This document shows, piece by piece, positions 31,605 to 36,749 of a stretch of 64,000 nucleotides of DNA. The DNA comes from Armatimonadota bacterium (GTDB lineage Bacteria; Armatimonadota; Zipacnadia; Zipacnadales; VGFC01). The stretch covers positions 34,518 to 98,517 of the forward strand of contig VGFC01000001.1 in assembly GCA_016869045.1 (NCBI GenBank), read 5' to 3'. The first letter of the stretch is position 1; each line of letters opens with the position of its first letter. The notes beneath the pieces are model-generated. The model did not search any database. It saw nothing but the letters and a program-made list of their open reading frames with translations, and was not told the DNA's origin. Made by a program: the position numbers and the translations under genes.

Positions 31605-33794
31605 ATGCACGTCGTGGCTGTCCTCTCAGTCGCGTTCCCGCTGCTTGGCCACGCTCAGGAGAGCGACGTGCGGGGGCGGCTCGGCCGGCTCACGAAGGCC
31701 GTCGAGCGGATCGAGTCCAGTGCCGCCGACCGCGATTCGGACGTGTACCGCTCGAACATCCCGCTCGCGCGCTTCAAGTTGCGGAAGGCCCTCGCGCAGT
31801 GGCGCGCGCCGTTCGAGGGGGAGGTCGAGGCCCGAGACACCCTCGACGAGGCTGCGGAGGCCCTGGACCGCCACGACGCCGGCAAGGTGGCGTTTGAGGG
31901 CGAGACGGGCCATCTCGAACGCGCCTACTTCGCTCAGAACGACGATACGGCGCAACCGTACTTCGTCTACGTCCCCGAGGACTATCAGCCGAAGCAGCGT
32001 TGGCCGTTGATCGTCTTCCTCCACGGCTACGTGCCTTACACCAGCATCATCGACCCGTGGGTGCTGTACGAGGAGCACGAGCGGATCGCGGCGGACGCGG
32101 GGGCCCTGCTCTTGACGCCGTACGGGCGCCGGAACACGGACTTCCAGGGCGTGGGCGAGGTCGATGTCCTGGCCGCCATCGAGGAGACGAAGCGGTTCTA
32201 CTCGGTCGATCCGGACCGAATCTACCTGTGCGGGCCGTCGATGGGCGGCTACGGGACGTGGACCATCGCGCTGCGCTACCCCGGCATGTTCGCGGCGTGC
32301 GCGCCGATGTGCGGGCAGACGGACATGTTCGTGTGGTGGCCGTGGCCGCACCTCACCGCGCCGAAGTGCAAGCAGTTCCTCGGCGAGTGGGATAACCCCA
32401 TCGACCTCGCGCCCAATGCCGTCGGGCAGCGCTGCTTCCTGCAACACGGGGAGTTCGACCGCCTGATCCCCATCGAGCAGTCGCATATGATGCGCTGGGA
32501 GATGGACCGGCTGGGGACGCCGATCGAGTACTACGAGCACAAGGACGCGGACCACTTCATCTACCAGCACGAGCTGTGCTTCCAGAAGGCCTTCCCGTGG
32601 CTCGTTCAGCACAAGCTCGATCGCTGGCCGAAGCACGTGCGCCTGAAGAGCTACACGTACCGCTACGACACCGCGTTCTGGCTCCGGATTCTCGAGTACC
32701 AGCGGTGGAGCCAACCGGGCCAGATCGAGGCGACCGTCGAGGGCAACCGGATCAGTCTGACGAGCCAGAACGTGGCGCAGGTGCGGCTGTCGCTCTCGAA
32801 GGAGCTGCTGGACGTCGGCCAGCCGGTCACGGTCGTGTGCGGCGGCAAGGAGGTGTTCAGCGGGGTGCCCAAGGGCGAGGCGATTACGGTGAAGCTCGCC
32901 GAGCCGCTCACCCCGGAGAAGCCGGGCGCGATCCGCAAGCGGAAGGGCCTGTGCGGGCCGCTGGAGGATGTGCTCAACGGGCCGTTCGTCGTCGTGCCGG
33001 GCACCGCGGGCTCACAGGACCAGACGCAGGAACTGACGGACCGCGCGACCAAGTGGTGCGCGGAGTGGGACGCCTTCGCGGACGGCATCCCGCCTGTCAT
33101 GCTCGACACTGACGTCGATGAGAAGACCATCGCCGAGCGCAACCTCGTGCTGTTCGGCACGCCGGAGACGAACCAGGTCATCGCGGACATCGCCGACCGG
33201 CTGCCTGTGAAGATCGCGGAGGATGGCTACACTCTCGGCGGTCACACCTACACCGGCCCCGACCTCGGGCTGGCCCTCTGCTACCCGAATCCGAAGAACC
33301 CTGAGCGTTACGTTCTCATCTACGCCGGCGAAGACCCGGGCACCAACCTGGGGATCAACCACAAGCACGACCTGCTGCCCGACTACTTCATCTTCCGCGC
33401 GGGCGAGAAGAACGGCTACGACGACACTTACCCCCACCTGTGTGCCGGCTTCTTCGATCTCAACTGGGAGTTCGACCCGACGCTGATGGACGCCGAAGCC
33501 GCCCCTGCCGACCCCTACTTCGGCTCGGCGACCCTGGTCCGCGATGCCACGCTCACCCAGCCCGTGGCGAAGGTCACCAACGGCTACGCCGACCCGCTCC
33601 GCGTGACCATCGATCGCGGCGAGGAGGCAGTCATCCAGCCGGGCGAGTCCATCGAGCGGAGCCTCGAACCGGGACGGCACCTGTTCACGGGCGTCTGCCC
33701 GGACGGTGTCACACGCACCGAACAGCGGCTGATGGTACCGGAGTTCCGATACGAGTGGAGGGTCCCGGCGCTGTTCCCGGCGGGGTGGCCGTAA
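31605..33794 (+). CDS. secreted alpha/beta-hydrolase (S9 prolyl-oligopeptidase/esterase-like)
   Basis: ATG with GGAGGTG upstream. Signal peptide MHVVAVLSVAFPLLGHAQ. Nucleophile elbow LCGPSMGGYG (GxSxG). Confidence 0.6.
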   Translation: MHVVAVLSVAFPLLGHAQESDVRGRLGRLTKAVERIESSAADRDSDVYRSNIPLARFKLRKALAQWRAPFEGEVEARDTLDEAAEALDRHDAGKVAFEGETGHLERAYFAQNDDTAQPYFVYVPEDYQPKQRWPLIVFLHGYVPYTSIIDPWVLYEEHERIAADAGALLLTPYGRRNTDFQGVGEVDVLAAIEETKRFYSVDPDRIYLCGPSMGGYGTWTIALRYPGMFAACAPMCGQTDMFVWWPWPHLTAPKCKQFLGEWDNPIDLAPNAVGQRCFLQHGEFDRLIPIEQSHMMRWEMDRLGTPIEYYEHKDADHFIYQHELCFQKAFPWLVQHKLDRWPKHVRLKSYTYRYDTAFWLRILEYQRWSQPGQIEATVEGNRISLTSQNVAQVRLSLSKELLDVGQPVTVVCGGKEVFSGVPKGEAITVKLAEPLTPEKPGAIRKRKGLCGPLEDVLNGPFVVVPGTAGSQDQTQELTDRATKWCAEWDAFADGIPPVMLDTDVDEKTIAERNLVLFGTPETNQVIADIADRLPVKIAEDGYTLGGHTYTGPDLGLALCYPNPKNPERYVLIYAGEDPGTNLGINHKHDLLPDYFIFRAGEKNGYDDTYPHLCAGFFDLNWEFDPTLMDAEAAPADPYFGSATLVRDATLTQPVAKVTNGYADPLRVTIDRGEEAVIQPGESIERSLEPGRHLFTGVCPDGVTRTEQRLMVPEFRYEWRVPALFPAGWP

Positions 33795-33855
33795 GGCAAC
33801 GAAAACGGGAAGAGATTCGAGGACCAGAAGAACGACGAAGACGGCAACGGCCCCT
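33793..33855 (+). repeat. solo copy of the aaggcaacgaaa-gggaaga-attcgaag...gaagacgg repeat family (left boundary of lower-GC island)
   Basis: aaggcaacgaaaacgggaagagattcgaggaccagaagaacgacgaagacggcaacgg is ~80% identical to the repeat at 56271-56345 that flanks GxxExxY gene #2. Confidence 0.65.
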
Positions 33856-34066
33856 GAATCTGTGTAAGCCTCTCGTTTGTAGCAGGCGTATTCCCCAGTG
33901 ACTGCAGACACCATCGAGTTCGGTCGTGATGGCATCGTGAGCGATGACCGCGTTGGCCCCGTTCACCGCGAGACGGTGCACCTCGTGGACAGGGAATCCA
34001 CACCGGATGTACTTGCCGGGATCAGGCACAGGACGCCCTTCCGGGCCGCAGTGCCCAACGACGCCC

Positions 34067-35004
34067 TCAGCACTCGCGGTAGATGCTGATCAGGTTCATG
34101 GACATGCAGGGGTACTTGACCCCACTCGTCATTCGACGGATCGCGTCTATGGCGAACACAAGCTGCTCCAACCGGTCCTCCATCTCGTTGCCCGTGGTGA
34201 AGGCGGCGAACCCCTCCTCGCTGGGCTCCGGCCGGGCGACGTTCACCTGACCGACCACAGTCCAGGCGCCGCCCAGATCAAGGCCGTGGCTCTGCTGAAC
34301 CGCCCAGAGGCCGTCCTGGAAGTTCGCTCTGAGAGCCACGCCCGCGAACGTGTTCTGCGGGGTGTCCGGGGACGGCCGAACCTTGACCCGCACGGTGTCA
34401 CTGAAGCTCCGCTCGATGAACTGGGCCATCGCATCGACCTGCTTCGGTCCGAACCCACCCAGGTCGAGCTTCGCGTGTTGCTGCTGTTTGCCTTTGCCAC
34501 CTTCGCTCGGGCCTTGGCTTGCGGCCTTGACGAGTTGGTTGATCACGTCGATGAACTTCGGCAGTTCCCGCGCGGTATCCACGATGAGCTTGTAGTCGAT
34601 GATCCGAACGTCCCCACACACCCGCACCACCTCACCGTCTCTGAGCACGGTCGGCGACCACGCCTTGTCGGCAACGCGGCGTCCACAAACCGTAGCCGGT
34701 CCGACTCGGCCAGGTGCTTCTCGAACAGCGTGTAGGCGTGGTGATGCAGGCTCCTCGTCTCGTCCTGGCTCCTGAAGTACCGGTAGTCTGCCCCCGCCTT
34801 CCCCTTGAGGAGAAACGGCAGGGAGCCCTCTATGCCGCCCTCGACCGACACATCAGCTCCGCTTCCCTTGTGAAGCGTTTCTGGCACTCCCTCCAGGAGC
34901 TGGGCTATGAATGAGCGGACCCGCTCCATGTCCAGGTAGAGGAAGTCCCGAAGCAGCTTCGGTTTGTCGGTCATCGTTGCGTCACCACCTAAGGAGCCAA
35001 GCAC
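34067..35004 (-). pseudogene. unrecognised protein, apparently frameshifted (track ORFs 34543..35004 and 34067..34648), downstream partner of the TIR-like gene
   Basis: N-terminal frame MTDKPKLLRDFLYLDMERVRSFIAQLLEG... runs into an Arg/Ser/Cys-rich junk tail. Protein-like sequence resumes in the +1 frame at VLRDGEVVRVCGDVRIIDYKLIVD... Lower GC (~55%). Confidence 0.45.
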
Positions 35005-35115
35005 TCCATCAGCGACGCGCCGCGGTGCCTAGACAGCCTCGTCATTGGCCGGGCCCGTCAGGCCCAACCCAGTGGAGAGGGAGGTCAAACCCGACGTGCC
35101 TGCCGGGACGAGTAC

Positions 35116-35967
35116 TCACGTCAGGTTGTGTCCATACGCAGCCTTGATCTCCGCCTCGATCTCCAGGTACCTGTCCCGCACGGAGGTCCCGAACTCATGC
35201 CACCCGATGCCCAGTAGGTCAGTGGGTACAGCCGTCCCCCTCCTATAGAGCACGCAGGTGCGGCTTCGTCCGAGTTTGCCATAGAACCAACCGACCTCGA
35301 ACAGCACGTTGGGCCGCATCTGCCTGTAACTGGCGTCCGCCGTCTCCACGCTATCGTCTGGCGTCCAGATCGCGAAGGCGTACCCGCATCCGCCACCGAC
35401 CTGCTCGAGCTTCTCGATCAAGGTCCTCCCCTGATGTGCTTCCCGATCCAGGAGCACAGGCGTCAGCGAACCGAAGCGCTCGCCGATCAGCTCCTTCAGC
35501 TCCAGAGCTGCCGTTCGGTCGTGACCATGGACGATGAAGACCCCCGTCGAGGGAGCCGTGGTTGCTGCGCTGGCGGTTGGCACGCTCTGGGCCACCTCTG
35601 GGACGAGGTCCAGTCTGCTCCTGATGGACTCCAGTTCCCGGATGTTCTCGCGAAGCCCACGCACCAGTAGGGCAGCCTCGGCCGCCACGGACGGGATCCC
35701 GCTGACAGCGACCCCCCCGAAGCCGACTCCCGCGTAAACCCGGTACACTTCGTCGGTCGTGTATAGCTCTCGGAGTAGGTCGTAGTTGTACTCATTCCAT
35801 GTCCGGCGTTCGGCCTCCACAGCATCCAAGTCCGCATTGCTGCGTATAGCTTCTGCCCGGCTCGCGATCTCCTGCCCGCACTCGATCCGGGCCGTCAGCT
35901 TCTGCTGCGCATCTTCCCGGCTGCACGTCAGCCGTGGTCTCTCCGGCGGCGTCTTGGGCTTCGGCAT
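35116..35967 (-). CDS. protein with C-terminal TIR-like nucleotide-binding domain (COG4271/PF10137-type) and unrecognised ~145-aa N-terminal domain
   Basis: C-terminus VFIVHGHDRTAALELKELIGERFG...GRTLIEKLEQ...YAFAIWTPDD...RQMRPNVLFEVGWFYGKLGRSRTCVLYRRGTAVPTDLLGIGWHEF matches the family consensus VFIVHGHD...RaRQNVifElGyFiGkLGReRV...PSDl.G. GGAGG RBS upstream. Confidence 0.65.
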   Translation of the reverse strand: MPKPKTPPERPRLTCSREDAQQKLTARIECGQEIASRAEAIRSNADLDAVEAERRTWNEYNYDLLRELYTTDEVYRVYAGVGFGGVAVSGIPSVAAEAALLVRGLRENIRELESIRSRLDLVPEVAQSVPTASAATTAPSTGVFIVHGHDRTAALELKELIGERFGSLTPVLLDREAHQGRTLIEKLEQVGGGCGYAFAIWTPDDSVETADASYRQMRPNVLFEVGWFYGKLGRSRTCVLYRRGTAVPTDLLGIGWHEFGTSVRDRYLEIEAEIKAAYGHNLT

Positions 35968-36107
35968 GTGTTCCTACACCTCCCCCCTGGCGTAGCCATC
36001 AACCAGGGCCGGATGCACTCCATAGGACCGACTCCCCCCTGCCGGAGCGGCGTCGTCGCTCCCTTGGCCGGCGACCCCCCACGCGAACCGCCGCGACGCA
36101 GCGCGGT

Positions 36108-36749
36108 CTACCCTTCGCTGATCCGCGCCTGGAACTGGGCCATCTTGGCTTCGAGGCGGGATTGCTGGAGGGCGTTGGTGACGTCGCCGCGGGTGCGCTC
36201 GACGAGGCCGCGGGCGGCGTCGGTGCGGCGGCGGAGGCCGAGGCTGACGGCCTCGGGGTAATCGAAGGTCATCAGGAGGGCGTACATCTCATCCATCTCG
36301 TCGAGGACCGCCCCGGCGCGCTCGGGCTCGCCGATGCGGATCAGGTCCAGCACGTGGCGGCGCATTTCTCCGATTGCCTCCGCCAGTCCGTTGAGGTATG
36401 TCGCAGGTGAGACGCCGATCTCCTCGGGCGTCGGCAGACGCTCGCCCTGGAGGATGCGCAAGGTCTGGTGCGCCTCGGCGTACTCCTTGAGGGCGTCGGT
36501 AACGAAGCCTGCGAACCACAGCGAGGGCGACGCCTGCATGCGCTCGTTCATCTCGCGGACCGCCTCGCCCATCTCCGCCAGCAAGTTGTGCGCCTCGTCG
36601 TACTCGCTCCGGTGCGCGTGCTTGATGATCGTGGCCGCCGTGCGAATGACCTGCCGCGAGAACTCCAAAGCTCCCTCCCGGTGCGCGTCCTCGCGGTCGA
36701 GGAACTCGCGCGCGGTGGCGGCCACGGCCTCAAGCTCTGGGCGGTTCAT
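36108..36749 (-). CDS. translin-family protein (tentative)
   Basis: YLNGLAEAIGEMRRHVLD resembles the translin EYL.GL.D..GEL.R motif. All-helical ~213-aa protein. Host-like GC. Confidence 0.4.
   Translation of the reverse strand: MNRPELEAVAATAREFLDREDAHREGALEFSRQVIRTAATIIKHAHRSEYDEAHNLLAEMGEAVREMNERMQASPSLWFAGFVTDALKEYAEAHQTLRILQGERLPTPEEIGVSPATYLNGLAEAIGEMRRHVLDLIRIGEPERAGAVLDEMDEMYALLMTFDYPEAVSLGLRRRTDAARGLVERTRGDVTNALQQSRLEAKMAQFQARISEG

Follow-up and report, generated by a model that had tools for sequence, protein, structure and literature searches.

A DUF6414 pseudogene, very probably inactivated recently by a one-nucleotide deletion, beside an intact TIR-like gene in an Armatimonadota genome

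The window, that is, the whole stretch of 64,000 nucleotides of Armatimonadota contig VGFC01000001.1 that was analysed, carries at 34067-34974 of its minus strand a pseudogene member of the Pfam DUF6414 family, and we regard it as very probable that this gene was inactivated recently through the deletion of one nucleotide. In an ancestral DUF6414 gene of about 303 codons, one base would have dropped out at codon 101 (34672-34674, minus strand). From the ATG at 34974, translation would then give 100 native residues and about 42 read out of frame before it stops early at 34543, and the remaining 201 codons, lying in the -1 frame, would stay untranslated save for any weak internal restart. Because the break falls inside a single DUF6414 domain, the product is most likely non-functional. 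The annotation appropriate for 34067-34974 is one DUF6414 pseudogene and not two hypothetical proteins. Taken alone, the finding is an ordinary one of little importance, namely the recent decay of a defence-island gene in an Armatimonadetes genome from the environment.

Two open reading frames cover the locus on the minus strand. ORF-A runs from the ATG at 34974 to a stop at 34543-34545, the ORF listing extending its start to an upstream GTG at 35004. Its translation, MTDKPKLLRDFLYLDMERVRSF...RLRFVDAAL, begins with MTDKPK and consists of 100 native codons followed by an Arg/Ser/Cys-rich tail of about 42 codons. Codons 1-100, together with the first two bases of codon 101, form the N-terminal part of the pseudogene (34673..34974, minus strand), which aligns with residues 1-100 of 15 homologs and is preceded by AGGTGGTGA, a Shine-Dalgarno-like motif upstream of the ATG at 34974. 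The tail itself (34543..34672, minus strand; PTRRGRRPCSETVRWCG...SST, about 42 nonsense codons closed by the TGA at 34543-34545) is unmatched, with the Pfam match ending at residue 91 and the family-profile match at residue 102 (P0194).

ORF-B is open from about 34860 and ends with a stop at 34067-34069, also on the minus strand. From 34672 its translation reads ...ADKAWSPTVLRDGEVVRVCGDVRIIDY..., and towards the stop the frame reads ...ADKAWSPTVLRDGEVVRVCGDVRIIDYKLIVDTAREL.... The C-terminal part of the pseudogene (34067..34672, minus strand) comprises, in the -1 frame, codons 102-302 with their stop, and it matched positions 99-302 of the family profile built here with an E-value of 7.8e-85. 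Two GTG codons, at 34648 and 34621, are possible internal restarts in ORF-B. The JGI gene call starts from the latter, has 184 aa (P0006) and occurs on 5 contigs; with a Shine-Dalgarno-like GAGGTG 6 nt ahead of it, this codon could give rise to a 184-aa C-terminal fragment.

Searched alone against Pfam DUF6414 (PF19952, 283 positions, gathering score 25 bits), ORF-A matched profile positions 1-89 (E 4.7e-10, 40.1 bits), and ORF-B matched positions 101-246 at a score under the 25-bit cut-off (E 4.6e-4, 20.5 bits). A repaired protein of 302 aa, obtained by adding one base at the junction, gave one collinear match of residues 8-271 to profile positions 1-246 of 283 (67.4 bits, E 2.3e-18), a score above the gathering cut-off. 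Since the two halves match consecutive parts of one Pfam domain, the split is more than a matter of chance. The window gene itself is no single uninterrupted ORF of about 280-320 codons, being split at codon 101. The sequence-only reading had proposed one gene divided by a frameshift, and this proposal stands: both strings that it quoted are present on the minus strand, and joined they give the single collinear match.

The frameshift site lies at 34670..34674 (minus strand), where the window has TT-GCC and the homologs have TTY GCN (Phe-Ala), and thereby within the range of 34650-34680 in which the switch had been placed earlier. The minus-strand sequence as assembled there is GCGTTGCCGAC, and the site itself, GTTGCCG, contains neither a homopolymer nor a repeat. 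When the DNA of four homolog genes (P0001, P0002, P0004 and P0007) was threaded onto the protein alignment, the window's TT-GCC-GAC stood opposite TTY-GCN-GAK, encoding Phe-Ala-Asp/Glu. The frame offset of 35004-34648 = 356 = 3x118+2 puts the downstream frame at +2, which is equivalent to -1, and so one base is missing; the label of "+1" that the frame had previously been given has to be changed to -1 (+2), as results from a one-nucleotide deletion. The simplest reading of the alignment is that one base was lost at 34672-34674, probably base 3 of codon 101 or else a G from the GG pair of TTG-GCC, and the ancestral sequence at the junction would have been ...VDAA(L/F)ADKAWSP.... An insertion of 2 nt, which also fits the frame, was rejected, as it needs a one-residue gap against every homolog and this gap is absent.

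A search of 5.8 billion protein clusters yielded 15 full-length homologs of 286-305 aa and 31-74% identity. All 15 are contiguous single ORFs, none of them split at the boundary seen here, and in the multiple alignment the repaired protein crosses the junction without a gap against all of them. The closest, P0001 (303 aa, 74% identical, from sediment metagenomes), is a DUF6414 protein of the same length as the repaired protein and collinear with it over the whole domain; the repaired protein carries all family-invariant residues, as do DUF6414 relatives such as P0001, and the difference is that the loss of 1 nt at codon 101 breaks the ORF of the window. An exhaustive HMMER search with the homolog alignment returned 1013 cluster representatives at E<=1e-3, and most of the best 150 were 280-320 aa long and matched in one stretch. 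One of these 150, P0194, is the window's own 143-aa upstream ORF including the nonsense tail. Homologs encoded as two genes were found neither among the 15 full-length homologs nor among the best 150 of the 1013 representatives. The exhaustive search also returned several C-terminal "fragments" that start near profile positions 91-102; of these the only one checked, P0172 (210 aa; L048:4767-5633), proved to be a start-codon miscall, with the same frame open upstream and encoding a DUF6414 N-terminus (MAETGSPLRDFIYLD...). A scan of the genome contigs with the close-homolog alignment found no relatives, a plasmid search gave one distant archaeal match only (23% identity, with uninformative neighbours), and NCBIfam has no model for the repaired protein, P0001, P0008 or P0011.

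The inactivation is recent, because the repaired protein retains 64 of the 65 positions conserved at 85% or more in the 15 homologs, thereby equalling any intact member tested likewise, because a relative-rate test against P0001 with five outgroups revealed no acceleration on the window lineage, and because a second lesion is absent from both halves. Among the three options that had been offered from the letters alone, a recent inactivating mutation is the best fit. Given such strong conservation, a gene that has just died and one still expressed by an unknown route would look the same in sequence.

An AlphaFold2 model built on the 17-sequence alignment was of medium confidence (pLDDT 71, pTM 0.66), with residues 29-72 and 155-167 disordered. 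Strands are predicted at residues 9-14 and 94-97 before the break and at 116-127, 194-200, 210-215, 233-245 and 291-301 after it. In this model, the break at residue 101 would leave two strands and two helices on its N-terminal side and the other five strands on its C-terminal side, all within what Pfam counts as a single domain. Foldseek found nothing with an E-value below 0.2, and an OB-fold-like core of DUF6414 is a hint from the model and not a result. We infer that intact DUF6414 is a defence-island protein, possibly with such an OB-fold-like core that binds nucleic acid.

Other frameshifted members of the family were seen among the loci examined. The DUF6414 gene in the loci L032 and L033 (L032:3-928, L033:1622-2559) breaks near residue 117 into the -1 frame, and that in L038 (L038:526-1354) near residues 85-95 into the +1 frame; P0200 shows an apparent break near residue 113 (105-130) followed by a nonsense tail. 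All four known breaks, including that of the window, fall between residues of about 85 and 120, for which chance or detection bias may be responsible. Since the loci examined contain frameshifted DUF6414 genes from three or more separate lineages, decay of the family seems common, and this may be useful for defence-island mining. A large clade of the family has a different setting. In L049-L053 (e.g. L049:3140-8641), DUF6414 belongs to a conserved four-gene operon without Pfam or PADLOC annotation. In order, its genes encode proteins of 637 aa, 355 aa (DUF6414, whose gene overlaps the one before it), 606 aa and 245 aa. Members of this clade have no GADYRYFRS...ETRSLHHH segment; the L049-type protein occurs in 32 blocks of the collection in the index, and 24 contigs carrying it were read.

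Some observations could be claimed by other explanations. A single missing base in an otherwise conserved gene also has the look of an error, and the sequence-only reading had listed sequencing or assembly error as an option, in which the real genome would hold an intact 303-codon gene and a base would have been dropped in the consensus. We consider this very unlikely. Over 6.3-8.5 kb, contigs of three JGI assemblies (3300020074, 3300020084 and 3300020109) match the window at 100% identity, the site included, and the site is no homopolymer, so a random error is improbable; the 184-aa call in ORF-B recurs on five contigs, and the protein search found no intact copy of the window allele, the best full-length match being 74% identical. 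The three metagenomes were assembled separately but represent a single clonal population of one lake, in which 8.5 kb show no SNP. As a comparison of assembled contigs, their agreement shows reproducibility and not independent evolutionary fixation, and a recurring artefact of assembly or consensus calling, or an intact allele in the minority, would be compatible with it. It is likewise highly improbable, to the point of being negligible, that a programmed -1 ribosomal frameshift or transcriptional slippage restores the full-length protein. The required shift of -1 is the commonest programmed direction, and two other frameshifted members, as well as P0200 if it is frameshifted, also break in or around the same region. 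However, an X_XXY_YYZ heptamer is absent from the whole of ORF-A, which has no A/T run either, and no homopolymer of at least 5 lies within about 120 nt of the site. The homologs read the junction in one frame, meaning that the shift is not conserved, and the other frameshifted members differ in the position and direction of their breaks (-1 in L032/L033, +1 in L038).

A functional split, in which both pieces, or the C-terminal piece from GTG 34648 or 34621, still work as a two-part protein, possibly with the TIR protein as well, appears quite unlikely to us. It can draw on the GAGGTG ahead of GTG 34621, a start that was picked by the JGI gene caller, on the undamaged state of both halves and on the clustering of TIR and DUF6414 in L014 as well; moreover, the break falls between the predicted strands 94-97 and 116-127, where residues 98-115 carry no assigned secondary structure save for a short helical turn at 103-105. 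Yet no two-gene homolog was found, and the candidate fragment P0172 had its start miscalled. The two ORFs would have 76-103 nt in common, with ORF-A ending in a 42-residue nonsense tail that is conserved sequence read out of frame, which also speaks against the earlier option of two overlapping genes with a GTG start. A fragment from GTG 34621 would be without the most conserved N-terminal motifs of the family, RDFxYLDxERVRS and ETRSLHHH. Furthermore, the downstream methylase gene is destroyed too, which points to a loss of selection on the cassette. A recently inactivated pseudogene remains our preferred explanation.

This destroyed neighbour is a stub of a DUF1156/HmaB-like DNA methylase gene at 33949..34020 (noted also to 34029; minus strand), covering approximately residues 4-27 (PGKYIRCGFPVHEVHRLAVNGANA). 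It starts about 37 nt past the DUF6414 stop and keeps 24-27 codons, the rest of the gene being deleted. By tblastn, the stub is identical at 15 of 24 positions to the N-terminus (residues 4-27) of the 780-aa protein encoded directly after DUF6414 in L004, the locus of P0001, and at 16 of 24 positions to the corresponding protein in L011, the locus of P0007 (55% identical); the E-value is 1e-7 for a search against the window region alone. In L004 and L011, the methylase lies 35-44 nt downstream of DUF6414, and the proteins in question are DUF1156/N6_N4_Mtase/PADLOC HmaB-like methylases. Pfam found no domain in the stub ORF, which is too short, and in place of a full-length protein with DUF1156 and methyltransferase domains the window has only about residues 4-27 left. 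Methylase homology stops after about 27 codons and a convergent esterase gene ends at 33794; most of the methylase gene and all that came after it have been deleted in the window. The stub lies within a mechanically listed 106-aa ORF (33709-34029), which runs into the end of the convergent esterase gene and is unlikely to be a real gene.

The placement of DUF6414 directly upstream of DUF1156/HmaB-like cassettes in its closest relatives may also serve defence-island mining. In L011 (L011:738-6287), DUF6414 comes first. The methylase frame after it appears divided into ORFs of 536 and 482 aa, behind which lie a 148-aa gene and an SNF2 helicase. In L004 (L004:1-9295), it stands ahead of the methylase, with a divergent cluster of BrxC/PglY-like, PglZ-like, metallophosphatase and AAA_23 genes upstream.

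The region from 33800 to 36000, an islet of about 2.2 kb, has a GC content of 0.60-0.65 against 0.67-0.71 in the flanks, and this lower value is consistent with horizontal acquisition. No tRNA, flanking repeats or integrase were seen at the islet, and promoter, terminator, repeat, tRNA and Rfam scans returned nothing relevant. With its intact TIR gene, broken DUF6414 gene and methylase stump, the islet looks like the remains of a defence cassette. Between the TIR and aconitase-family genes lies a 213-aa gene (36108-36749, minus strand) with a sub-threshold match to the Translin family (24.4 vs 25.9 bits).

The TIR-like gene (35116..35967, minus strand; 283 aa) is the upstream neighbour, 141 nt from DUF6414, and is intact. 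It matched Pfam CAP12-PCTIR_TIR (PF10137) at profile positions 2-117 of 119 (E 1.2e-28) and, close to full length, PADLOC PDC-S35 (PDLC05005) at positions 13-253 of 264 (E 9.4e-39), which places it in that group. In an alignment with 14 homologs, 16 of 16 invariant residues are kept, and the protein is 100% identical to the NCBI entry [quoted passage not shown]. An assignment as a CBASS Cap12 or Pycsar TIR effector was rejected, the NCBIfam Cap12 scores being 47.7 and 40 bits against a cut-off of 450, and no cyclase gene was found among the neighbours of the TIR gene.

The DUF6414 gene had also been called the partner of the TIR protein, a claim for which the support is weak. Four of the five other TIR-homolog loci examined (TIR identity 55-35%) have no DUF6414; the neighbours of these four are DUF3800, small unknown ORFs, DUF4926 and an XamI-type R-M system. 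In an HMM scan of all 53 fetched loci, TIR and DUF6414 turned up together in the window contigs and in L014/L015 but nowhere else; in L014/L015 they are separated by a DUF4917 gene. The other fetched DUF6414 loci, a small sample of about 20 distinct ones, are without TIR. Elsewhere, the neighbours of DUF6414 include DUF4917 (L009), type I and ISP R-M genes, an NYN nuclease, a serine recombinase and unknown large genes. In a search for a partner shared between clades, the large genes beside DUF6414 in L017 and L049 turned out to be unrelated to each other. A pairing of TIR and DUF6414 is therefore not supported as a rule, although the two may still be functionally linked, and with DUF1156 methylases as the neighbours in the closest relatives, DUF6414 most likely would have decayed alongside a methylase-type cassette rather than as an obligate TIR partner. 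The 5-kb contig L014 (L014:138-4901) is in itself a dense island of PD-Lambda-3_B-like (Hypoth_Ymh), TIR (PDC-S35), DUF4917 (PDC-S21, SIR2-like) and DUF6414 genes, with a spacing of 22-25 nt among the last three.

DUF6414 proteins might also be OB-fold-like nucleic-acid sensors with interchangeable effectors, the window then presenting a TIR-DUF6414 pair just after the loss of the sensor, with the NADase-type effector intact. We think this unlikely. If it were true, the effectors would be the PDC-S35 TIR here, the SIR2-like DUF4917 in L009 and L014, the DUF1156 methylase/SNF2 in L004 and L011, and the ClpB-like protein in Dodola.

Compared with known systems, the likeness to PDC-S35, a TIR of the CAP12/Pycsar-effector type, belongs to the upstream neighbour and not to the frameshifted gene. 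Downstream, the window keeps, at the same position, the start of a gene of the Hma-type/DUF1156 cassettes (PADLOC HmaB, NCBIfam "anti-phage-associated DUF1156 domain-containing protein"); the methylases of L004 and L011 reach 132 bits against the NCBIfam cut-off of 1000 and are thus only Hma-like. Dodola consists of a DUF6414 protein and a ClpB-like protein (bioRxiv 10.1101/2024.10.26.620412), forming a two-gene system active against SPP1 phage (PMC11514479). PADLOC gave no model at E<=1 for the repaired protein or for the other 16 members of the alignment, a result that covers Dodola if the library holds its models, and neither the genes called on L001-L003 nor the ORFs listed for the window contain a Clp/AAA domain. 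The missing PADLOC match and the missing ClpB-like gene together rule out an identity with Dodola. Where Dodola has its ClpB-like partner, the DUF6414 gene of the window is surrounded by a TIR gene, a methylase stub and housekeeping genes.
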